64,000 bases of DNA from the NCBI GenBank assembly GCA_045653505.1, contig JAZOLZ010000007.1:4447-68446 (forward strand), in the 5' to 3' direction. Position 1 is the first letter of the stretch, and the number at the start of each line of letters is the position of its first letter. The translations under genes were made by a program, and so were the position numbers. This DNA comes from Eubacteriales bacterium (GTDB taxonomy: Bacteria; Bacillota; Clostridia; Oscillospirales; CAG-272). Shown here in pieces: positions 1 to 9,818 of this stretch. A model generated the notes under the pieces. That model searched no databases. It saw only the letters and a list, made by a program, of their open reading frames with translations, and was not told the DNA's origin.

Positions 1-1052
1 GACGATATAATATTAATCTTGAAACACGTGAACAGTTCCTTGATGAATATCCTGACTTCGTTGCAGGTCTTGCTGTCGGAAAAATCAAAGATAGAAACAA
101 GGCAGAAAGCAAACCAATTAAGATTAGAAAAGGCGTTTTCAACGAAATCAAAGAACTTTGGGAAAAAATCAACCAAAGATATTTGCTCTATTATGATGTG
201 GAACTTAACGATGCACTTGATACGGCAATTTTAGAAATACTTGAAAAGCCGGGCATTTTTAATGGTGTCGTTTTGAGTAGTGAACGAGATATTGTCCGTA
301 GTGATGGCTCGCAAATGTCAACCGAAGCTGGGGTTGGTGTACAATATACCATTTCTCGTCCTATTGCCTATAATGTGTTCCTGAAGCGAATTATGCACAC
401 CACAAATATTCCTCTTGCAGTTATGCACAAGGCTATGTGTGAATACGCAAAAAAACACGGAAATATCAATAGCGACTATATCAATGAAAGCACCGTTGTC
501 GTATTCTGCAAAGAGTTTTATGATTGGAAAATTGCACATTTACAAGGGCATTTCCATTATAAAAAGAGTTCTATCGCCACAAGAGAAACAGCGCTTACCT
601 ATGCGGATGGTACTCCGAGAGATGAAATTGCACAAGGTCGTATCGGCACAAAAATTGTTGCGGGCACGCCAAGTGATAAATACCTGTATGACACCTATGC
701 TTACGATTCTCCTTTGGAAAAGCAAAACATTACCTCGGACATTGAATCCGTAACGGTATATGGCAAAATACCGAGAAGCAGTATTGCTATTCCTACTATT
801 ACGGGTGGAACATACAGCCCCGACTTTATGTATGTTGTGACTCGTACCTCAGGAGAAAAGGAACTCAATGTTATCGTTGAAACAAAGGATGTAGAAAACA
901 AGACGGAGTTGCGTGGCACAGAAGAAGCAAAAATAAAATGTGCCGAATTGTTCTTTAGTATACTCGAACAAGACGGCTACAAAGTATATTTCAAAACCCA
1001 AATCAATAATAAACAAATGAAACAGATTATTGATGAGGTGTTGAGTTGTTAA
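1..1052 (+). CDS. Type III restriction endonuclease Res subunit, C-terminal part (5' end lies outside the window)
   Basis: Frame 3 is open from base 3 (RYNINLETREQF...), so the ORF-track Met at 183 is internal. The C-terminus has a PD-(D/E)xK nuclease signature as in type III Res proteins (YSPDFMYVV ... NVIVETKD ... LRGTEEAKIKCAELFF). Confidence 0.65.
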   Translation, partial: RYNINLETREQFLDEYPDFVAGLAVGKIKDRNKAESKPIKIRKGVFNEIKELWEKINQRYLLYYDVELNDALDTAILEILEKPGIFNGVVLSSERDIVRSDGSQMSTEAGVGVQYTISRPIAYNVFLKRIMHTTNIPLAVMHKAMCEYAKKHGNINSDYINESTVVVFCKEFYDWKIAHLQGHFHYKKSSIATRETALTYADGTPRDEIAQGRIGTKIVAGTPSDKYLYDTYAYDSPLEKQNITSDIESVTVYGKIPRSSIAIPTITGGTYSPDFMYVVTRTSGEKELNVIVETKDVENKTELRGTEEAKIKCAELFFSILEQDGYKVYFKTQINNKQMKQIIDEVLSC

Positions 1053-1069
1053 AAGTTAAGGAGAACAGT

Positions 1070-1231
1070 ATGACAGAAGAACAAGTTAAGTTTTTATGTA
1101 AATGGATTGTTGATAACAGCAATCGTCCATTGAATGAATTAGAAAAAGAACTTATTAAGCAAGCAATCGACAATTCTAAAAATCCGCAAGAGATGGTTGT
1201 ATCCGTTTTGGCACTGTTGAAGAATATGTAA
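1070..1231 (+). CDS. hypothetical small protein (53 aa)
   Basis: Lies in ORF 1046-1231. The ATG at 1070 follows AAGGAGAA. The gene abuts the res stop (1050-1052), suggesting co-transcription. No recognisable motif. Confidence 0.4.
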   Translation: MTEEQVKFLCKWIVDNSNRPLNELEKELIKQAIDNSKNPQEMVVSVLALLKNM

Positions 1232-1285
1232 AAATGAAAAAACGTTCTCCTTCATCGAAATAACAATCGAAGCTATGGAGTAAAA

Positions 1286-1816
1286 ATGGATAATATAACA
1301 TACAAAGCACTGCGTTTATTACAAAACATATTTTCTTTGAAAGATATCAACAAACTTATTCTTCCTCTAAATAACGAGTACAAACCTGAAGAAGAATATA
1401 GTTATTTTTCAACGGAAGATTATTATCCAATAATTTACGAAGAATCAGTTTCGTTGATTATTGAAATAGCCGTTTTGATGCGCAGAGAAGCTGAACAATT
1501 AGATAAGTATAAAGAAAGTCTTAACGCAAAAGTAAAATATTCAAATGTAAGCAAAGATATTGAAAACAGCAAAGATATCTCTTTTTTGAATACACTTTCT
1601 AAAATAGTCCACTCTGACGACATTTTGCTTGAAGTAAAAGATAGACACGGGAATATAGGTTATAGTTACGAGTTGGATAGAGATTGTTATTTTACGGGCT
1701 TTGCTTTATGTAAAGGAACAGACAAAAACAATGTTCCGCAGACAATAAAAATTGATATTAAACGCTTTTGTATCAATGTATTTATGTTTAAGGCAGATAG
1801 ATGTGATATGATGTAA
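1286..1816 (+). CDS. hypothetical protein (176 aa)
   Basis: Clean ORF with GGAG upstream of the ATG, co-oriented between res and the HNH gene. No motif recognised. Confidence 0.5.
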   Translation: MDNITYKALRLLQNIFSLKDINKLILPLNNEYKPEEEYSYFSTEDYYPIIYEESVSLIIEIAVLMRREAEQLDKYKESLNAKVKYSNVSKDIENSKDISFLNTLSKIVHSDDILLEVKDRHGNIGYSYELDRDCYFTGFALCKGTDKNNVPQTIKIDIKRFCINVFMFKADRCDMM

Positions 1817-1827
1817 AGGAGAAAGAA

Positions 1828-2523
1828 ATGCCCTTTAATGAAAAAATAAAAGAAGAAGCAATGATAGCATGTGGGCGACACTGCTGCGTCTGTCATAAAT
1901 TTTGTGGTAACAAAATGGAAGTCCATCATATAACTCCACAAAAAGACGGTGGTGAAGACACGTTTGAAAACGCTATCCCCCTTTGCTTTGAATGCCACGC
2001 AGAAGTGGGGGCTTATAATACTAGTCACCCTAAGGGCGTTAAGTTCTCTAAAACTGAATTAAAGCGTCATCGCGATAATTGGTATAACCGTGTTAAACAA
2101 GGTAATGTGACAAGCGATACAATTCCACCAATGAAATTATTGCGTGAAGAAGGATTTGAAAATACCCCACTCGTTCGCATAACATCGGGAATACAACTAT
2201 TAAATGCTTTGAGTGGGTGTTGTGGAGCTCAACATAATTACGAAGAACCCAAAACAAGAGAAGAAGCATCTATTATCAGTGAATTTCAAAAAGAAATTGA
2301 ATATTTATCGGATGCTGATTCTCTTGTGGAAGAAAGTGAAAGAGTGCTGATAGGGTTTGATTTAAATGACTTAATAACTAAAATGGACGAAAAAGGTTTT
2401 TGGATTTTTACAGGAAGAGAAAATGTAGTTTTAACGGGTGGTGCAATCAGAACTCCTGAAAACTTTCCGCTATTACATATTTACATCTTGAAGAAAGACA
2501 ATATAATAATCAAAAACGATTAA
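1828..2523 (+). CDS. HNH endonuclease domain protein with unrecognised C-terminal domain
   Basis: The N-terminal ~70 aa carry a Cys box plus HNH motif: CGRHCCVCHKFCGNKMEVHHITPQKDGGEDTFENAIPLCFECH. AGGAG lies upstream. The gene starts 12 nt after the previous stop. The C-terminal ~140 aa are unassigned. Confidence 0.8.
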   Translation: MPFNEKIKEEAMIACGRHCCVCHKFCGNKMEVHHITPQKDGGEDTFENAIPLCFECHAEVGAYNTSHPKGVKFSKTELKRHRDNWYNRVKQGNVTSDTIPPMKLLREEGFENTPLVRITSGIQLLNALSGCCGAQHNYEEPKTREEASIISEFQKEIEYLSDADSLVEESERVLIGFDLNDLITKMDEKGFWIFTGRENVVLTGGAIRTPENFPLLHIYILKKDNIIIKND

Positions 2524-2538
2524 ACCATTTACAGAAGT

Positions 2539-2570
2539 AGTCCGGTGTACAAGAAAATGTACACCGGACT
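2539..2570 (+). terminator. hairpin after the HNH gene (terminator-like, weak T tract)
   Basis: agtccggtgtac-aagaaaat-gtacaccggact forms a 12-bp perfect stem 16 nt after the stop. The downstream T run is poor. Confidence 0.4.
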
Positions 2571-2592
2571 ATTGACTTTTACGAAACTTAAA

Positions 2593-2637
2593 ATTGGTAT
2601 AGAGTTGGTATAGTTTTCGGTGTTAAAGTTGGTATTA
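2593..2637 (+). repeat. three direct copies of (A/G)TTGGTAT(A/T), candidate recombinase arm-type sites
   Basis: attggtatag (2593), gttggtatag (2604) and gttggtatta (2628) lie about 120-160 bp upstream of the tRNA-fragment core. Confidence 0.4.
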
Positions 2638-2757
2638 GAAGCGAAAATTACTTGAAGAAACGAACAAAAAGCCTCAAAATAGACGCATTTTAGGGCATAA
2701 AACGCACGAAAATCAAGAAAAATCGCATTTCAACGCCACTTTTACGGTAGAAAAGCA

Positions 2758-2801
2758 CTCCTAAGGGTTAGTTACAGGTTCGATTCCTGTTGCGGGTGCC
2801 A
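2758..2801 (+). other. tRNA 3'-half-like fragment (anticodon loop to CCA), putative att site of an integrated element
   Basis: The sequence ctcctaa-gggtt-agtt-ACAGG-TTCGATT-CCTGT-TGCGGGT-G-CCA has a canonical T arm, a 3' acceptor strand and CCA. No matching 5' acceptor strand or D arm lies upstream. The loop would read as anticodon CCT (Arg), which is tentative. Confidence 0.6.
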
Positions 2802-2803
2802 AT

Positions 2804-2840
2804 AAGAACGTAAATCGAACAAGGTTTACGTTCTTTTTCT
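2804..2840 (+). terminator. rho-independent terminator after the tRNA fragment
   Basis: aagaacgtaaa-tcgaacaagg-tttacgttctt is followed by tttt. Confidence 0.6.
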
Positions 2841-2986
2841 TTGCAAAAAATCAAGGGCGGGACAACAAGCCCCACCCTATAAAGTTTAATATTAAAGTTT
2901 ACAATTCCCGCCCAATAAGTATAAAACAAGCAGATGTTCAGGAACGTGGACGTCTGACCGCTTTTGTAAAAGTTTTTAGTTTTCCG

Positions 2987-4210
2987 TTAAATTGCTGCAA
3001 CCAAACTCTTAACAATTCCCTCAAGAGACGACTCGGAACGTTTTTTAACAATATCCGAAAAGTCCATATCTAATGAAAGAAATGTCAATCCTTTTTGTTT
3101 TCTTAAAACATCTAATCCTTCCTTGCCATACATATATATGAGATTTGAAATATACGTATTTTTTGCTTGCTCACTATGGTAAAGAATCATAATTTCATCC
3201 ATTTTATTAAAGAGTTCCATAATGATATCTTTATCCGTGATGTCAAGAGAGTGTCCCATAACAATAAGTGAAGCAAATTGCTTAGGCTCTTTAATTTCTT
3301 TTAACCAATTCATATAGTCCAAATCGGTATTATATTGAGTTCGCTGAAAATACTTTTTAAATTTCACAAAAGATACGTCTATTGAAGTTACCTCATCGGA
3401 AGAATCAGGATTGATACCAATAATTATTTTATTCTTTATATCCCCGTGTAAATGAAAAATTTCTGAACTTAAATAGAATTGCTCGTAACTACTTGTATAG
3501 TTAAAACTAATAGCTTTGTCAATATGCGTAATTGCTGGACATTTTTTAAGTGTATGCTGTTTGATTTCTAATAAAGTTGGCTCTATAAAAGCTTCTAAAT
3601 ATAATCGTAATATTTTAGCCAAAATGTTTAATTCTTCAAGTAAATGTTCAATAATTTTTTCTTTATTTACAATAATTAACCCCGAACCTAAAGGATATTC
3701 CTTAGCAAAATCATCTATTACACTGTGTGAAGGACCACCAACAATACCCGAATTGTAATCTTTAAGAAAGAAATTAAAATTCTTAATTATGTATGTTTGT
3801 TCTTTATTAACTTCGTGAAAGCGAACTTTAACTGTGGCTTTTTTCAAAAAAGCCTTAAAGGCATCTAAAACATAGGCGATTTCCTTTTCAAAATCTATCC
3901 ATCCAACTCTATTATCAAATATCTTTAATAAATACTGAAACCATAAGTTAGTTTTTGATAAATCAATCAACTGCCCAACAATGCGCTCATCCAACACAGT
4001 GCCTTCATAAACTATTTTATGGGCATTATAACATTCGCCAATGAAAGCATCTTCATTTTGCAACCTGCTATCGCCAAAAACATCAGCAATGGTTTTCATT
4101 TCGGGCTTATAATTTTTAACAAGAAAATCTATTGTATGTAAAAAGTTGTCATATCTCGTTGGTAACTTATGATAAAGGTCAAAACCGTTGCCAAGTAAAA
4201 GTATATTCAT
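2987..4210 (-). CDS. AbiH-family abortive-infection protein
   Basis: The N-terminus MNILLLGNGFDLYHKLPTRYDNFL matches the hallmark start of the AbiH family (xIxGNGFDLxHxLxTxYxDF). The 407-aa length fits. Confidence 0.7.
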   Translation of the reverse strand: MNILLLGNGFDLYHKLPTRYDNFLHTIDFLVKNYKPEMKTIADVFGDSRLQNEDAFIGECYNAHKIVYEGTVLDERIVGQLIDLSKTNLWFQYLLKIFDNRVGWIDFEKEIAYVLDAFKAFLKKATVKVRFHEVNKEQTYIIKNFNFFLKDYNSGIVGGPSHSVIDDFAKEYPLGSGLIIVNKEKIIEHLLEELNILAKILRLYLEAFIEPTLLEIKQHTLKKCPAITHIDKAISFNYTSSYEQFYLSSEIFHLHGDIKNKIIIGINPDSSDEVTSIDVSFVKFKKYFQRTQYNTDLDYMNWLKEIKEPKQFASLIVMGHSLDITDKDIIMELFNKMDEIMILYHSEQAKNTYISNLIYMYGKEGLDVLRKQKGLTFLSLDMDFSDIVKKRSESSLEGIVKSLVAAI

Positions 4211-4275
4211 TCTTTCTCCTTTGTTCTTTTGTAAGTATTTCGGCGAGAGAGATTATTCTTCTATTTGCGAATATG

Positions 4276-4467
4276 CTACCATCTTGAATTGCTTAAAAAG
4301 GTTAAAAGTTCGTTTATATCTTTTGCCCTAGAATAAGCGTCAATAGCGTTAAGCCAATTTGCTTTTTGTTGGTTAGATAAGCTCATATCATTACAAATCA
4401 TTTGTTTTATGATTTCGGTTTTTGCTTTCTCTAATCCTTTTTGAATAATATAATCGTTTAAATTCAT
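4276..4467 (-). CDS. hypothetical small protein (63 aa)
   Basis: ORF lies between the RhuM-family and AbiH-family genes on the same strand. No motif recognised. Confidence 0.4.
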   Translation of the reverse strand: MNLNDYIIQKGLEKAKTEIIKQMICNDMSLSNQQKANWLNAIDAYSRAKDINELLTFLSNSRW

Positions 4468-4523
4468 ATTTGTCCTTTCATTTTATCACAGTAAATATAA
4501 CAATACCCGTCATATTTATAAAA

Positions 4524-5531
4524 TTAATCTTCCTTTTTACCTATGAGTTTTTTTACTTCTTTATCAAAGTCAGAAGTGATTTTTTGTGTCTTATTAAACA
4601 CATCGTATTCATGCGTGGCCTTGCGTTCCGCATCAAGTTTAGACACAGTGCCTTTGCCTTGCAAAATCTTATATTTACGGAATTCCAAAAAGGCGTTGAT
4701 TGCTTCTGCAAATTGTTGCATTGTAAATGTGCGTTCTTCTTCGATTAAATCTTCCACATAGTCAAAGAAGCCAGAAACTGTTCTTTCCAACTTTTTAATT
4801 TGCTTTTCTTCAAGATAATTTTTAGCAATCGTTACGTCAGATTTCAAAATCCTTCCGTCTGGGGAGTGTTTCCAAGTCGTAAGTCCCATATTTTCTTTAG
4901 AACTGTCCGCTTTAGAATAAACGATTTCAGCGGCAGTTTGTCCGGTAATAGCATAGTGGAACTTGTTTTGAACCGTAGCATAAAATTCTTGCGTAATAGT
5001 AGAGTTTTTATCGTAGTCGATACTACACTCAGCAAAAATATCGGTAATTAGTTGCCAAATTCTACGTTCACTTGCACGAATGGAGCGAACTCTTTCCAAA
5101 AGTTCACGGAAATAGTCTTTACCAAAAACCGTTTCGCCTTGTTTTAAGCGTTCGTCATCCAAGACAAAACCTTTTTTAATAAACTCTTTTAATACCTTTG
5201 TTGCCCAAATACGGAATTGTGTAGCACGGTGGGAGTTGACGCGATATCCAACGGAAATAACGGCATCAAGGTTGTAGAATTTGATATTTCTTGATACTTG
5301 ACGAGTGCCTTCAGTTTGAACTACCGAGAAATCCTCGGCAGTTCCTGACTCTTGTAATTCTCCATCTTGATAGATATTCTTTAAATGTAAGGAGATGTTG
5401 TCGGCGGAACAATCAAAAAGTTCTGCCATACCACGTTGGGTAACCCAAATGGTTTCGTCCTTTATCGCAACCTTAACCTTAATATCTTCTTGGTCTATGT
5501 TGTATAAAACAAATTGAAGTTCATTAGCCAT
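4524..5531 (-). CDS. RhuM-family protein
   Basis: TIWVTQRGMAELFDCSADNISLHLKNIYQDGEL ... KFYNLDAVISVGYRVNSHRATQFRIWATKVLKEFIKKGFVLDDERLK is a typical RhuM-family core. Confidence 0.8.
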   Translation of the reverse strand: MANELQFVLYNIDQEDIKVKVAIKDETIWVTQRGMAELFDCSADNISLHLKNIYQDGELQESGTAEDFSVVQTEGTRQVSRNIKFYNLDAVISVGYRVNSHRATQFRIWATKVLKEFIKKGFVLDDERLKQGETVFGKDYFRELLERVRSIRASERRIWQLITDIFAECSIDYDKNSTITQEFYATVQNKFHYAITGQTAAEIVYSKADSSKENMGLTTWKHSPDGRILKSDVTIAKNYLEEKQIKKLERTVSGFFDYVEDLIEEERTFTMQQFAEAINAFLEFRKYKILQGKGTVSKLDAERKATHEYDVFNKTQKITSDFDKEVKKLIGKKED

Positions 5532-5737
5532 TATTCCACCTCCACAATTTCCATAATGTCAGCTATATCGCATTTAAGTGCAGAGCAGATTTTTACAAGC
5601 ATTTCAGTATTAACGTTTTCGTTTTTGCCGAGTTTAGCCATAGTGTTTGTTGAAATGCCTGCGGCGATACGTAATTCTTCTTTCTTCATATCTTTATCTA
5701 TGAGAAGTTTCCATAGTTTTTTGTAGCTTACTGCCAT
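5531..5737 (-). CDS. XRE-type helix-turn-helix transcriptional regulator (68 aa)
   Basis: HTH pattern ELRIAAGISTNTMAKLGKNENVNTEMLVKICSAL. Its stop overlaps the RhuM start by 1 nt (ATGA-type junction at 5531). Confidence 0.8.
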   Translation of the reverse strand: MAVSYKKLWKLLIDKDMKKEELRIAAGISTNTMAKLGKNENVNTEMLVKICSALKCDIADIMEIVEVE

Positions 5738-5927
5738 TTTTACAACTCTCCATATTGTAGTTTATATTATTGTAGCATATATAAAAATAAAAATCAAGGC
5801 ATTCTTTGCGTTCGCCAAGATTTACTTGTTGAACACAGAAAGTATTTTCATTCCCTTTGTCTTTCTCAAAAGTTTCTTAAAACTTGATTTGTTGAGTATA
5901 TGACGTGCGCTTGTCTTTAACAAGTAG

Positions 5928-6158
5928 AGTAAAATCGGCAATTACGATGCTGTTTCCCTAGGGTTAAAAATTGCATATTACAGAAAACTGCGTGGTTTAA
6001 CTCAAGAGCAACTCGCTGAAAAAATAGACAAAAGTGCGGCATTTATAGGTCACGTTGAAGCCCCGAATGTAGACAAAGCAATTTCACTTGACACATTGTT
6101 TGATATTGCCGAGGCTTTAGATATACCCGCACATAAATTTTTCATGTTTGAGGAATAA
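5928..6158 (+). pseudogene. XRE-type HTH gene without a usable start codon (remnant)
   Basis: The open frame reads SKIGNYDAVSLGLKIAYYRKLRGLTQEQLAEKIDKSAAFIGHVEAPNVDKAISLDTLFDIAEALDIPAHKFFMFEE*. A TAG sits immediately upstream at 5925-5927. There is no ATG/GTG/TTG before the HTH. Confidence 0.45.
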
Positions 6159-6164
6159 ATTATC

Positions 6165-6198
6165 CTGAGGTTAGAATTATGCTAACCTCAGTTTTTTA
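6165..6198 (+). terminator. rho-independent terminator
   Basis: ctgaggttag-aattatg-ctaacctcag is followed by tttttt. Confidence 0.7.
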
Positions 6199-6208
6199 TT
6201 GTTTTACC

Positions 6209-6237
6209 TTGCAATCTACTGCGTTTTATGGTATAAT
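6209..6237 (+). promoter_or_regulatory. sigma-A-type promoter for the Fic gene
   Basis: TTGCAA, a 17-nt spacer, then TATAAT with an extended -10 (TGgTATAAT). Confidence 0.5.
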
Positions 6238-6267
6238 ATAGTAGAGTTTATAACTAAAGGAGAAAAT

Positions 6268-6876
6268 ATGGCACTTGAAAACAAACTCGGAATAACCGAT
6301 TCTGCAGAGCTTGCCCGCGAAGAAGAACGAATAAGCAAAACACGAGCAGTAGAACTTTTTGAAACTAATTTTCTTTCTTCTCTTACCCCTGGAACGTTTG
6401 ACGCTCTTTCTAAAATACACGCTTCCCTTTTTTCTGACATATACGATTTTGCGGGTCAGATACGGACAGTGAATATGTCAAAGGGGAATTTTAGATTCGC
6501 TCCGCTTATGTATCTCTCTACCGCACTTGAAAATATCGAAAGAATGCCTCAGAGCACGTTCGATGAAATCGTTGAAAAATACGTTGAAATGAACGTGGCT
6601 CACCCTTTTAGAGAAGGTAACGGACGTGCAACTCGAATTTGGCTTGACCATATATTCAAAAACGAAATTGGAATGGTTGTGGACTGGAGTCTTGTGGATA
6701 AAGAGGATTATCTTCTTGCTATGGAAAGAAGTCCTATTAAAGATATTGAAATAAAACATCTTTTAAAAGGCGCTCTTACCGACAAAGTGAATGACCGACA
6801 GGTGTTTATGAAAGGTATTGACCACAGCTATTACTACGAGGGTTATACTACCTTTAAGGCAGAAAATTTGAAATAA
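6268..6876 (+). CDS. Fic-family protein (AMPylase type), class III architecture
   Basis: Fic motif HPFREGNGRATRIW. The ATG at 6268 follows AAAGGAG. The C-terminus has SYYYEG, which fits the inhibitory (S/T)xxxE(G/N) motif. Length is about 202 aa. Confidence 0.85.
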   Translation: MALENKLGITDSAELAREEERISKTRAVELFETNFLSSLTPGTFDALSKIHASLFSDIYDFAGQIRTVNMSKGNFRFAPLMYLSTALENIERMPQSTFDEIVEKYVEMNVAHPFREGNGRATRIWLDHIFKNEIGMVVDWSLVDKEDYLLAMERSPIKDIEIKHLLKGALTDKVNDRQVFMKGIDHSYYYEGYTTFKAENLK

Positions 6877-6882
6877 GACTTA

Positions 6883-6908
6883 GGCAGTCAGATTGACTGC
6901 CTTTTTTA
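6883..6908 (+). terminator. rho-independent terminator
   Basis: ggcagtc-agatt-gactgcc is followed by tttttt. Confidence 0.7.
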
Positions 6909-7012
6909 TTATCGTAACGTTATACATATTTTTAAGTGTTTGACATTTGTTTTACGGTGTGATATATTTTATTTAAGACCAGAGTTAACATTTTTCTTTA
7001 GGAGGTCAGGTA

Positions 7013-7366
7013 ATGTATCTTGAATACACAAACGCACACTACATTGGAGACGTAAACGCGGACGGGCAAGAACACGGCTAAGGTACATTGTTTTATGACA
7101 ACGGCGAAATATATGATGGTGATTGGCGTGATGGCAAGCGACACGGAAGATGCATTATATCTTATAAGAATGGCAGTAGATACGAAGGTCAGTTTTCAAA
7201 TAACGCTTTCAACGGACGTGGCAGGCTTATCCAGAATGACGGTATTGAGATGGAGGGTAACTGGAGTAGCGCGAGTAATGCTACAGACGTAACCTTCTCA
7301 AGTGGCGGCAAAGTTTCAAAGGGATATATTGAAAACTGGGGTTTCAAGAGAATAGATAATAAATGA
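7013..7366 (+). pseudogene. MORN-repeat protein interrupted by an in-frame TAA
   Basis: The ATG at 7013 follows AGGAGG. The reading MYLEYTNAHYIGDVNADGQEHG is stopped by TAA at 7079-7081. It continues in the same frame as GTLFYDNGEIYDGDWRDGKRHGRCI... with MORN repeats (YxGxWxxGxxxG). The Met at 7088 has no RBS. Confidence 0.55.
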
Positions 7367-7416
7367 AATTCATTATAATGAACTTTGCTTAAAACAATAA
7401 ATATTGCCCTAAAATG

Positions 7417-7446
7417 TAAAAGGCGCTTTACAAAAAGCGCCTTTTT
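7417..7446. terminator. bidirectional terminator at the right edge of the AT-rich island
   Basis: aaaaggcgcttt-acaa-aaagcgcctttt has A and T tracts on both sides. Confidence 0.7.
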
Positions 7447-7447
7447 G

Positions 7448-8980
7448 TTATGCTTTTTTAGTAAGTAGTTTGTGTTTTGCTTTGTCCTTTAATGATTTAT
7501 AAAGGGTTGAGATAACAAGATAAAGGGAGAGAAAAATACAACTGCTAAAGACTATTTTTATTATAAGAAGTCCTACGGTTGTAGACTGGCCGTTTATCCT
7601 AAAAAGGGTATGCGAGGTATAGGCGCTTAGGATAGCGCAGATAAGCGGGATGAGAATACTGCCTATAGGATGTATCTCAAATTTTATCCTCTTTCTTAAC
7701 CTGATAAACGACAGAATAAAGTTATACGCCTCCATAACTATTATTACTACGGCGTAACCCATAATACCCATTTTTGGTAAAAGAATTATGACAAGAATGA
7801 CGGATAGAAGTGAGTCTGTGATGTTTACCCACATTGAATATACGTGCTCGCCTATGCCCTTTAATATCGCATCGGTGACGTGGTCAAGATACATAAGCGG
7901 GATTACAAGTGAAAGGACGGCTATGTAATAACCAACATCGTATGAGGAGTAGATTATATAACCGAGTTCCTCTGCAAAGAGAAATATGAATATAGACACT
8001 GCAATCGCAAACACAAGTGTGGTGTTAAGTGAGCGATCGGCAATACTTTTCATTCTATATTTATTTCCTCTGCCCTCTGCCTCAGCAAACTCGGGTACTA
8101 AAAGTCCCGAAAACGAGGAAAGAGGAGACATAGGATAAAGTATCAGCGGTAGCGCCATACCGTGCAAAATACCGTAAAGGCTGAGAGCCTCACTTGCGCT
8201 TTTGCCACTCTCTGCCACTTTTATCGGAATAAGGGTATGCTCTACGGCTAAGAGTGCTGAGCGTATATTGGCTGAGACGCTTAGGGGTACTGCCATACCG
8301 AATACGTCTTTAAGTTTACTCTTATCAGAGGGCGATTTTTTATAGAGAAGTAACCTATCTATAATAAACTGTAGGAAAAGAAGAAGAGCGCAGAAAATCT
8401 CACCGAGGGTATTGGAAAGACAGAGGTAGATGCAAGCCGTCTCTACGCTTAGTTTTTTTGATACAAAAAGTATGACAAAGACTATACGGAAGGCTTGAGA
8501 GATTACGTGAGTGGCAGAGTTGCGTTTTACCCGCCTTACTCCGACAAAATAGCCCGAGAGGACAGAGGAAATTGCCGCAGGAAAAAGTGAAAAGGCGAGG
8601 ATTATAAGCGGCTTTAATGCTCTTTGGTCTCTTAAAATATGTTCTGATATTACCGGAGAGAGGAATAAAAGAGCGGCGCTTGACGCCAAACTGAAAAGGG
8701 ATGCATAGAAAAAGCCTGCGCGTAAAACCGCTGTACTTGAGCCACTGCCCTCCCCTTCCTTTGCCACAAGGCGCGTCATAGTGAGACTTATACCGCCACC
8801 GGCAAATGTCAGTGCAAAATTGTAGACGGTCATTATTACGGTAAAAAGCCCTATTCCCTCTGCCCCGACTGCCTGCGTTACAAAGGCATTAAAGAAAAGA
8901 TTTACCGTGCGCATTCCTATTGCTACTGAGGATAACAGAATGCCGTTTTCAAAAAATCGCTGTTTATTTGACTTTACCAT
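7448..8980 (-). CDS. MOP-superfamily flippase (polysaccharide biosynthesis / SpoVB-like)
   Basis: A 510-aa polytopic membrane protein. The N-terminus (GILLSSVAIGMRTVNLFFNAFVTQAVGAEGIGLF) is typical of SpoVB/MurJ-like proteins. Confidence 0.65.
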   Translation of the reverse strand: MVKSNKQRFFENGILLSSVAIGMRTVNLFFNAFVTQAVGAEGIGLFTVIMTVYNFALTFAGGGISLTMTRLVAKEGEGSGSSTAVLRAGFFYASLFSLASSAALLFLSPVISEHILRDQRALKPLIILAFSLFPAAISSVLSGYFVGVRRVKRNSATHVISQAFRIVFVILFVSKKLSVETACIYLCLSNTLGEIFCALLLFLQFIIDRLLLYKKSPSDKSKLKDVFGMAVPLSVSANIRSALLAVEHTLIPIKVAESGKSASEALSLYGILHGMALPLILYPMSPLSSFSGLLVPEFAEAEGRGNKYRMKSIADRSLNTTLVFAIAVSIFIFLFAEELGYIIYSSYDVGYYIAVLSLVIPLMYLDHVTDAILKGIGEHVYSMWVNITDSLLSVILVIILLPKMGIMGYAVVIIVMEAYNFILSFIRLRKRIKFEIHPIGSILIPLICAILSAYTSHTLFRINGQSTTVGLLIIKIVFSSCIFLSLYLVISTLYKSLKDKAKHKLLTKKA

Positions 8981-9113
8981 ATACTCTCCGAGGTGTTTTA
9001 ATACTAAAATATATGATAAATGAGCGAGAAATATAAAAATTTTACACTCTTAGGTTGAAAAAAATAAAGATATATGCTAAAATAGGATTAAAATAAAGTA
9101 ACGGAGAGAAAAC

Positions 9114-9818
9114 ATGGCAAAAAAACACAAGAATTCAAACTACGTCACTGAAAAGACGATAGCAAAAAAAGAGAGCCAGGAAAAGGCTATCAAGAAAAAG
9201 GAAATGACTAAGTTAATTACTTACATATCCATTGCAACAGCATCAGTGCTTGCAATCGTTGCTCTTATAGTATTACTCGTAGTATTTGCAGCACCCAAGC
9301 CTACACACCACGCAACAATTAAGCTGGTAGGATATGATGAGACTATACACGTTGAACTTTACGGCGACCTTGCACCCGAGACTGTTGATAACTTTGTAAA
9401 GCTTGCAAATGATCACTTCTACGACGGTCTGACCTTCCACAGAGTTATTAAGGACTTTATGATCCAGGGCGGTGACCCCAAGGGTGACGGCACAGGCGGA
9501 AGTGACAAGACCATCAAGGGCGAGTTTAAGGCAAACGGCTTTAACAACACGCTTTCCCACACAAGAGGCGTTATCTCTATGGCAAGAAGCGGTAATAACG
9601 TGAGTGGATTTGACACAGCATCCTCCCAGTTCTTTATCGTGCATAAGGACAGCCCCCACCTCGACGGTCAGTATGCGGCATTCGGTAGAGTTATCGAGGG
9701 TATGGACATTGTTGACGATATCTGCGAAAACACACCCGTTATACCCAACTCCGACGGTGCTGTTTCCAGCATAAATCAGCCCGTAATTGAGTATATCACT
9801 ATCCACCAGGCACACTAA
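9114..9818 (+). CDS. cyclophilin-type peptidyl-prolyl cis-trans isomerase with N-terminal membrane anchor
   Basis: FHRVIKDFMIQGGDPKGDGTGG, SMARSG and QFFIV are cyclophilin motifs. A TM helix lies at about residues 35-58. Confidence 0.9.
   Translation: MAKKHKNSNYVTEKTIAKKESQEKAIKKKEMTKLITYISIATASVLAIVALIVLLVVFAAPKPTHHATIKLVGYDETIHVELYGDLAPETVDNFVKLANDHFYDGLTFHRVIKDFMIQGGDPKGDGTGGSDKTIKGEFKANGFNNTLSHTRGVISMARSGNNVSGFDTASSQFFIVHKDSPHLDGQYAAFGRVIEGMDIVDDICENTPVIPNSDGAVSSINQPVIEYITIHQAH

Follow-up and report, generated by a model that had tools for sequence, protein, structure and literature searches.

A two-part, probably horizontally acquired defence island at a split tRNA-Arg(CCT) gene in a Clostridia metagenome-assembled genome

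Assembly GCA_045653505.1 of a Eubacteriales bacterium (Bacillota; Clostridia; Oscillospirales; CAG-272) is a metagenome-assembled genome (MAG) of 1.73 Mb in 41 contigs, 83% complete. We analysed 64,000 nucleotides (nt) of its contig JAZOLZ010000007.1 (C7), referred to as the window (C7:4447-68446); positions without a contig name are window positions, G000 is the source genome and the other G-codes are the genomes compared with it. Window 1-7447 is most probably the right two-thirds of an 11.8-kb, horizontally acquired composite defence island, which consists of two parts: an integrase-less element flanked by attachment (att) sites in the anticodon loop of a tRNA-Arg(CCT) gene (Part 1), and a second block of genes between the displaced 3' half of that tRNA and a core flippase gene (Part 2; Table 1). 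A first-pass annotation of the window had read this stretch as a variable defence island. Foreign composition, absence between species, rarity in the genus and differing cargo at the same tRNA-linked locus all support that reading, which needs refining in that the island is a composite of an att-flanked element ending at 2801 and a second block.

The composition of the island sets it apart from the rest of the genome. The guanine-plus-cytosine (GC) content of window 1-7447 is 0.350, against 0.425 genome-wide, in agreement with the AT-richness noticed in the first pass. Relative to all 7.4-kb windows of the assembly (mean GC 0.426, standard deviation (SD) 0.020), the stretch lies 3.9 SD lower and is the second-lowest in GC, within the lowest 0.4% of windows; its tetranucleotide L1 distance of 0.339 (mean 0.149) is equalled or exceeded by 0.27% of windows, which places it in the top 0.3%. 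In a 1-kb GC profile of the joined contigs, the drop comes right after a tRNA gene ending at C7:135 and the recovery at about C7:11900 (window 7450), and the island accordingly spans C7:136-11893, with 4.3 kb of its total to the left of the window. A terminator hairpin was indeed found at the right edge, where the first-pass annotation had placed one, and the left edge does lie outside the window as stated there, but it is recoverable, as C7 extends 4446 bases further left. The leftward extension proposed in that annotation, in search of mod, an integrase and the intact tRNA, yielded mod, the full res gene and an XRE controller, but not an integrase; it also yielded an intact tRNA-Arg(CCT), which is not the source gene of the fragment seen in the window.

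The surroundings of the island could be followed across a contig border. The last 140 nt of contig C37 are an exact copy of the first 140 nt of C7, and homologous stretches in G117, G082 and G014 run unbroken across the C37/C7 join; therefore, C37 is placed upstream of C7. Flippase orthologues were found in all 18 congeners searched, and in five of the six congeners examined the flippase gene lies directly beside the orthologue of C37:81234-82451, with no island genes there, as expected from the first-pass reading. To the left of the island, C37:82452-94110 is a block of normal GC that parts genes adjacent in congeners, so that the island sits at a synteny breakpoint; the DAK2, DegV and ATPase genes of this block sit elsewhere in G013, and no counterpart of its 419-amino-acid (aa) protein was found in five congeners. 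The flippase had no exact match in a look-up, and the best non-self flippase among 5.8 billion proteins is 56% identical, which indicates that the species is known only from this assembly. The source names of the flippase homologues include Clostridia, Ruminococcaceae and Oscillospiraceae bacterium.

The evidence for insertion at a specific site comes from the tRNA sequences at the two ends of Part 1. We refer to the intact tRNA-Arg(CCT) common to G004 (same genus), G200 (same family), G357 and G505 as the usual tRNA. The tRNA 3'-half fragment noticed in the first pass is real: in a DNA search, the fragment (attR) matches many of 400 genomes of the order at 91-98%, it is identical at 44 of 44 positions to the 3' part of the usual tRNA in each of the four genomes just named, and ARAGORN calls no tRNA at this position. 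The right arm that precedes it carries direct TTGGTAT repeats and is, over 191 nt, 92% identical to its counterpart in G062; TTGGTATA repeats resembling this motif stand before attR in G115 and G014, and also in the left arm. These repeats are possibly arm-type integrase sites. A 21-nt repeat (D10; C7:3-23 versus C7:7051-7071) was at chance level when taken alone, and has meaning only through its conservation in G062, G115 and G014.

At the left end, the intact tRNA-Arg(CCT) of G000 sits 142 nt inside attL. It has the same anticodon as the usual tRNA and differs from it in the acceptor, anticodon and T stems; no repeat of its own 3' end occurs at the right edge of the element, where the actual repeat belongs to a different tRNA. 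In G014, G082, G115 and G117, a tRNA of this kind is preceded, 100-170 nt upstream, by the 5' part of the usual tRNA up to and including the anticodon arm; this part is near-perfect in the first three and partly degraded in G117. Past this 5' half the sequence diverges from the tRNA in all four genomes and in G000, running into non-tRNA sequence, i.e. the target is not regenerated. The two halves share a duplicated core, which is CTCCTAAGG in G115, CTCCTAAGGGTTAGTTA (17 nt) in G014 and matches at 14 of 16 nt in G000. The complete order is seen on a single contig of G115: a spacer of about 140 nt with TTGGTATA motifs separates the 5' half from the second tRNA, behind which come 4.6 kb of cargo low in GC, another region of TTGGTATA repeats and the 3' half, and beyond these the genes have normal GC. 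G014 is arranged in this way too, and there a Fic gene comes after the 3' half. Separated halves with a duplicated core are the pattern that a site-specific recombinase acting in the anticodon loop would leave. The core (9-17 nt, CTCCTAAGG being one example) is too short to rebuild the usual tRNA, and the adjacent second tRNA is therefore read as a replacement. The G000 assembly, which is 83% complete, yielded no further tRNA-Arg(CCT). The attR fragment of G014 (L131, i.e. G014:C14:85000-104900 as reverse complement, at about 7113-7157) combines the T arm of the replacement tRNA, GTGAGTTCGATTCTCGC, with the acceptor strand of the usual tRNA; this mosaic suggests a gene conversion between two tRNA sequences inside one element.

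The distribution of the replacement tRNA is sporadic. Its 3' 50 nt occur without mismatch in 10 of 213 species of the genus, including G014, a distant species by its flippase (just 39% identity to the G000 protein). In the rest of the order, a single carrier turned up among 298 high-quality genomes: G625, from another genus of the family, where neither a split half nor arm sequences lie alongside and a promoter-like motif is read just upstream; in that lineage it may be an ordinary gene. Scans of metagenomes gave no match to the attR junction, and one 1.2-kb contig with the replacement tRNA. The statement in the first pass that no integrase or transposase is visible extends to the whole island, in that no recombinase domain occurs in any open reading frame (ORF) of C7:1-11893 and the non-coding gaps are too short to hold one. 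Among the carriers examined, G050 is the only one with an integrase. A tyrosine integrase adjoins a homologue of p176, one of the Part 1 genes, on metagenome contig L157, and it has two relatives of 55-56% identity in the genus, in G050 and G123. In G050, the 475-aa tyrosine integrase gene and a tRNA-Arg(CCT) of a third type are about 680 nt apart; this tRNA is preceded by the same arm and the usual-tRNA 5' half, and the locus is the most promising candidate for a complete element of this family. At the G050 locus (L163, i.e. G050:C64:369-4778), the replacement tRNA of 77 nt is at 730-806 and the integrase gene at 1483-2910; a 146-aa gene, an 86-aa gene and the integrase gene follow the tRNA on the opposite strand. 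In G123 the related integrase stands beside an intact usual tRNA-Arg(CCT). Since integrase-bearing relatives exist, the G000 element is best read as a derivative without that module. We also considered tRNA-Arg(CCT) as a general integrase hotspot and rejected this, since the genes downstream of it are mostly metabolic in four genomes with an intact usual tRNA. In one element-free congener, G004 (L121, i.e. G004:C53:11000-30000), an HTH_26-Fic fusion of 305 aa is encoded at 8341-9258 (minus strand), 113 nt downstream of the intact usual tRNA, so that a Fic-family gene beside the usual tRNA-Arg(CCT) recurs in the genus in a different architecture.

The cargo of Part 1, behind the replacement tRNA, consists of XRE1, a type III restriction-modification (R-M) system, p61, p176 and an HNH nuclease gene. 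The R-M system is complete, in mod-res order and with both subunits of full length; XRE1, whose gene overlaps the mod start, would by its position be the controller of the system. The HNH gene starts 12 nt past p176 and the C-terminal half of its product is uncharacterised. What follows the replacement tRNA differs from carrier to carrier. In G014, an XRE1 of 98% aa identity is accompanied by a 186-aa protein and a type III R-M system of other subfamilies; G098 carries two C5 methylases, an AAA_5 protein, a LlaJI nuclease and an AAA_13 protein; G062 has a 243-aa protein and a DUF4379 zinc-finger protein whose match to a nuclease domain is weak and below threshold; and G064 and G115 have a 236-aa protein with a larger one (591 aa in G064, 785 aa in G115), and those of them run against PADLOC had no match.

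Within this changing cargo, certain small genes are conserved. The p176 family comprises 21 protein clusters among 5.8 billion proteins, most of them 84-95% identical and none with a Pfam domain, and an AlphaFold2 model of p176 (pLDDT 80) gave no Foldseek fold match at E<=0.001, the best against PDB being E=0.27. At 85-91% nt identity, p176 recurs within otherwise unrelated defence gene arrays, where a type IIG R-M system plus a 353-aa protein, an SNF2-503-117 aa array or a TIR protein stands upstream of it, and DUF3644, a 449-aa protein, AbiH or HNH downstream; among these contigs, L156 likewise starts with an XRE1 of 98% aa identity. The clearest case of sharing lies outside the genus. The closest AbiH (89% aa, 90% nt identity) is encoded on contig JAZLBC010000002.1 (G163:C2), from a MAG titled Christensenellaceae at NCBI, where the operon reads XRE, p63, type II methyltransferase, split type IIG enzyme, p176 and AbiH. 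Four pieces of this contig are 87-91% identical in nt sequence to the island, i.e. XRE1 with its promoter, p63 with the upstream spacer, p176, and AbiH, and the blocks of homology stop at gene borders. Between that genome and G000, a LepA-like core protein shares just 68% identity, compared with 83-85% for congeners. The cassettes are thus far more alike than the genomes that hold them, which we read as horizontal exchange. The adjacency of p176 and AbiH on this contig raised the question of a fixed pair, which we rejected, as 56 other AbiH loci lack p176 and other genes follow p176 elsewhere. The type IIG restriction-methylase of the same contig (L102, i.e. G163:C2, 2470-6537, minus strand) is split into frames of 261 aa and 1075 aa, which jointly cover one PADLOC profile of 1359 positions; the gene is probably broken or phase-variable.

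Part 2 holds an operon of XRE2, RhuM, p63 and AbiH on the minus strand, a start-less XRE frame, a Fic gene and a small MORN-repeat gene. XRE2 is a paralogue of XRE1, the two forming a 202-nt inverted repeat with 71% complementarity (C7:269-470 versus window 5539-5740). These inverted paralogues head the two operons, and the repeat could, in principle, mediate inversion of the intervening 9.5 kb. Every gene listed in the first-pass annotation is present and belongs to the family named there (Pfam, PADLOC, NCBIfam, PHROGs), and its two disrupted genes were confirmed as such. The start-less XRE frame, a probable pseudogene, is devoid of ATG, GTG and TTG where four homologues (in G537, G462, G457 and G452) have ATG 12-15 codons before GLK(I/V)AYYRKL; G000 reads TAG-AGT-AAA-ATC. 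The MORN gene is interrupted by an in-frame TAA; no orthologue of it was found in 79 congeners, generic MORN-repeat matches reaching <=47%. Class III Fic proteins, of about 200 aa, carry both an HPFx[D/E]GNGRxxR active site and an inhibitory [S/T]xxxE[G/N] motif at the C-terminus of the same polypeptide. The 202-aa Fic product has HPFREGNGRATR and a C-terminal SYYYEG, and it scores above the cutoff of the NmFic equivalog, so that its assignment to class III holds; the gene has its own promoter (6209-6237) and terminator (6882-6902). In the PADLOC run that had been recommended, REase_III, MTase_III, AbiH, PDC-S05 and PDC-S04 were matched. Of the genes described as defence-type, the type III R-M system and AbiH were upheld, and RhuM and Fic are candidates through their PADLOC PDC classes.

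The comparison with relatives suggests that Part 2 is itself layered. The right arm of G062, together with a truncated attR, matches window 2593-2782 at 92% identity, and a Fic gene (93% aa identity) follows about 250 nt on; in G014, a Fic gene (87% aa) lies about 130 nt beyond attR. As Fic is close behind attR in both, window 2802 to about 6200 is extra in G000; this segment comprises a terminator, the minus-strand operon XRE2-RhuM-p63-AbiH, and the start-less XRE frame followed by a terminator of its own. Among 150 other species of the genus, AbiH was found in 3, with different neighbours each time. RhuM and AbiH were considered as a conserved pair and this was rejected, since two AbiH loci in the genus are flanked by other genes and none of 57 AbiH loci has a RhuM gene nearby. 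Past the NmFic-type gene, G062 (L139, i.e. G062:C3:24000-34232) encodes a second, larger Fic-family protein (348 aa), in which HPFxxGNGR was seen by eye, and it holds a duplicated fragment of a Fic C-terminus (regions 6079-7125 and 7356-7457 of L139).

Several observations weigh against the interpretation of the island as a site-specifically inserted, horizontally acquired defence element, and are best considered together. The attL of G000 is a degraded 5' half, recognisable over 31 nt with 5 mismatches, and an intact usual tRNA-Arg(CCT) could be in unassembled DNA of the incomplete MAG. In G062 the usual tRNA is still intact, ahead of the replacement tRNA, and splitting is therefore not universal in this family. 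Integration by a tyrosine recombinase is deduced solely from the att architecture and the relatives, the 11.8 kb holding no integrase, excisionase or transposase. The presence/absence pattern holds between species only, as there is no conspecific genome, and the genus is heavily rearranged. RhuM and Fic are candidate defence genes only. Finally, the contig break falls at the replacement tRNA; the simplest explanation would be that other species in the same sample carry arm and tRNA copies that are nearly identical.

This last point leads to the explanation that the island is an artefact of assembly or binning, in which DNA of another organism sharing the tRNA, Fic or arm sequences was joined to the core contig. 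The source is indeed a metagenome bin of 41 contigs and 83% completeness, and the break lies exactly at sequence that is 98-99% shared with other species of the genus. The island is nevertheless continuous with 98 kb of core DNA on one contig, the sequences it shares with other species are 85-93% identical rather than exact, the exact tRNA fragment (44 nt) is shorter than the 140-nt contig overlap, if that overlap is taken as the assembler word length, and independent assemblies (G014, G062, G115) show the same architecture on single contigs. We hold such a joining error to be extremely improbable. A decayed prophage or phage satellite, with the tRNA fragment as prophage attR and the XRE genes as remains of a lysogeny switch, has several features in its favour: XRE repressor-like genes are present, the HNH gene has matches among PHROGs families and the 94-aa MORN frame one to PHROG 7324, and tRNA-splitting with a replacement tRNA has so far been experimentally described for temperate phages (PMC10865867). 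It is very unlikely all the same, because G000 and the seven related loci inspected are devoid of genes for capsid, tail, terminase, portal, lysis or replication, PHROGs gave no match to RhuM or p176 and, for AbiH, just two families of unknown function, and the elements span only 3.6-7.3 kb and are made of R-M and other defence genes. Megablast of the whole island gave no match among plasmids or among 50,697 phage records.

An old, vertically inherited variable region is the third explanation, the split tRNA being a by-product of rearrangement between tandem tRNA-Arg(CCT) genes. The tandem of usual and second tRNA-Arg(CCT) in G062 is in its favour, as are the absence of an integrase from the examined carriers except G050 and the varying flanking genes of carriers, in a genus with many rearrangements. 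The duplicated 9-17-nt core at the anticodon loop, together with the repeat-bearing inner arms, is instead characteristic of site-specific recombination; the second tRNA is fully identical over its 3' 50 nt in just those 10 of 213 species, the distant G014 among them; G050 ties the same attL and arm to a tyrosine integrase; and the cassettes are 87-91% identical in nt sequence to a genome outside the genus. We consider vertical inheritance improbable on these grounds. Horizontal acquisition of a composite island thus remains the preferred reading.

Among known systems, defence islands and tRNA-linked genomic islands with R-M and Abi genes (Makarova et al. 2011; Islander database, PMC4383910) come close to this locus. 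The G000 island resembles them in its low GC, its sporadic occurrence, the gathering of several defence systems and the pseudogenes amongst intact genes, and it resembles Islander-type islands in its tRNA-gene site and in the displaced tRNA fragment that marks one end. Islander-type islands restore the target tRNA at the junction (PMC4383910). Unlike these, the G000 island has neither an integrase nor a regenerated target tRNA. Of the mechanisms described so far, the tRNA-dependent lysogeny of actinobacteriophages comes nearest; in it, a core of about 10 bp does not rebuild the tRNA and a phage tRNA of the same isotype is required for survival; it may reach beyond actinobacteriophages (PMC10865867, Guerrero-Bustamante and Hatfull 2024). 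The short core (9-17 nt here), the element-borne tRNA of the same isotype and anticodon and the possible arm-type repeats agree with this mechanism. In contrast, the G000 element is a 7-kb, non-phage defence element in a Clostridia MAG, and its integrase is absent (one is present in the relative G050); host dependence on the replacement tRNA was demonstrated for the actinobacteriophages, and for the G000 element we infer it.

Cis-mobilisable elements (CIMEs) of streptococcal integrative and conjugative elements (ICEs) are att-flanked, lack integration and transfer genes and are mobilised in cis by accretion. The G000 element is similar in that it has att remnants with inner arms, has no recombinase and is probably a deletion derivative of an integrase-bearing element; it is dissimilar in that no conjugative partner was identified and its att sites are partly degraded. 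Related integrases do occur in the genus. Variable defence hotspots bounded by conserved element genes are also reported from P2- and P4-like elements of Escherichia coli (Rousset et al. 2022). Similarly, XRE1 with its promoter, p63 and p176 keep 85-91% nt identity here, and the genes between them are wholly replaced by unrelated defence systems; the element family and hosts are different, the conserved genes are orphans, and the homology ends exactly at gene borders. As for the R-M system itself, mod before res, the N6_N4_Mtase and EcoP15I C-terminal domains and a small helix-turn-helix (HTH) gene overlapping the mod start match EcoP15I-type systems, from which it differs in that the HTH protein is HTH_26 / VanU-like.

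We propose the following history of the island. An element with a tyrosine integrase, of the family of G050, G123 and contig L157, would have entered the anticodon loop of the usual tRNA-Arg(CCT), and the tRNA-Arg(CCT) borne on the element would have stood in for the disrupted gene. The integrase module would have been lost afterwards, fixing the element in place, and the defence cargo appears to have been swapped thereafter by recombination at the conserved linker genes XRE1, p63 and p176. The XRE2-RhuM-p63-AbiH operon, along with the dead XRE, would be a later insertion between attR and Fic. The outcome would be a layered defence against phages and foreign DNA, in which the type III R-M system restricts unmodified DNA, probably timed by XRE1, and AbiH, possibly together with HNH, RhuM and the auto-inhibited Fic, arrests or kills infected cells. 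It is conceivable, although we would not call it probable, that this island belongs to an undescribed family of small, non-phage elements of gut or rumen Clostridia which cut tRNA-Arg(CCT), bring a replacement and act as a plug-in scaffold for defence genes, with XRE1, p63 and p176 as core genes that border two cargo slots and serve as recombination anchors or shared regulators. As a defence island the locus is ordinary, being one more cluster of R-M, Abi and candidate genes at a tRNA gene. What distinguishes it is that tRNA-splitting with a replacement tRNA, experimentally shown only for temperate actinobacteriophages (2024), is found here in small, integrase-less defence elements of uncultured Clostridia, with an integrase-bearing relative at hand in which it could be tested. 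Furthermore, the conservation of three orphan genes at 85-91% nt identity across hosts, with the defence genes between them swapped, provides a testable model of cargo exchange, and the cargo after p176 and behind XRE1 in related loci, including DUF3644, the 449-aa protein, the 353-aa protein and the SNF2-503-117 aa array, represents candidate defence genes.

Table 1. Features of the island and its borders in G000. Positions are those of the window unless a contig is named.
Feature	Position	Strand	Description and evidence
attL	C37:93999-94029		recognisable 5' half of usual tRNA-Arg(CCT)
Replacement tRNA-Arg(CCT), intact	C7:61-135		ARAGORN; Rfam 54.8 bits
Part 1	ends 2801		about 7.3 kb; att-flanked, integrase-less element in tRNA-Arg(CCT) anticodon loop
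XRE1, 71 aa	C7:272-487		HTH_26 / VanU-like; overlaps mod start
Mod, 688 aa	C7:462-2528		PADLOC MTase_III 526 bits, positions 1-657/657; N6_N4_Mtase and EcoP15I C-terminal domain
Res, 985 aa	C7:2541-5498		NCBIfam NF012027 1202 bits (cutoff 564), positions 1-983/986
Res, C-terminal 349 aa in window	1-1052 (coding 3-1052)	+	PADLOC REase_III E=7.8e-61; Pfam RE_endonuc
p61, small ORF	1046-1231	+	overlaps res stop; no family above threshold
p176	1286-1816	+	conserved orphan gene
HNH nuclease, 231 aa	1828-2523	+	Pfam HNH E=3e-10; weak PADLOC mREase_IV; PHROGs HNH endonucleases
Right arm	2594-2757	+	three direct TTGGTAT repeats (2594-2600, 2605-2611, 2629-2635)
attR	2758-2801	+	3' 44 nt (anticodon loop to CCA) of usual tRNA-Arg(CCT), no 5' half
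Part 2	2802-7447		between displaced tRNA 3' half and core flippase gene
Terminator hairpin	2804-2835	+	immediately after tRNA fragment; terminator scan
AbiH, 407 aa	2987-4210	-	last operon gene; Pfam PF14253 118.4 bits (cutoff 30.9); PADLOC AbiH
p63, small ORF	4276-4467	-	91% nt identity, 4277-4523 versus G163:C2:7536-7782
RhuM-family, 335 aa	4524-5531	-	Pfam Virulence_RhuM 358 bits; PADLOC PDC-S05 513 bits; candidate defence
XRE2, 68 aa	5531-5737	-	first operon gene; Pfam HTH_26; stop overlaps RhuM start
Start-less XRE frame	5928-6158	+	probable pseudogene; stop-to-stop ORF list
Bidirectional terminator	6165-6191		terminator scan
Class III (NmFic-type) Fic adenylyltransferase, 202 aa	6268-6876	+	NCBIfam NF046029 305 bits (cutoff 230); PADLOC PDC-S04 338 bits
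MORN-repeat gene, small	7014-7366	+	in-frame TAA 7079-7081; Pfam MORN
Terminator hairpin	7418-7445	+	right edge of low-GC block; terminator scan, GC profile
Core flippase-family gene	7448-8980	-	starts directly beyond 7418-7445 terminator

Other low-GC stretches occur in the genome outside the window. The lowest 7.4-kb stretch (GC 0.339) is at about C1:66,500-74,000, abutting tRNA-Ser(GGA) at C1:66131-66221, and may be a second tRNA-linked island. Further low-GC stretches lie at 15.5 kb of C23 and at 66.5 kb of C41.

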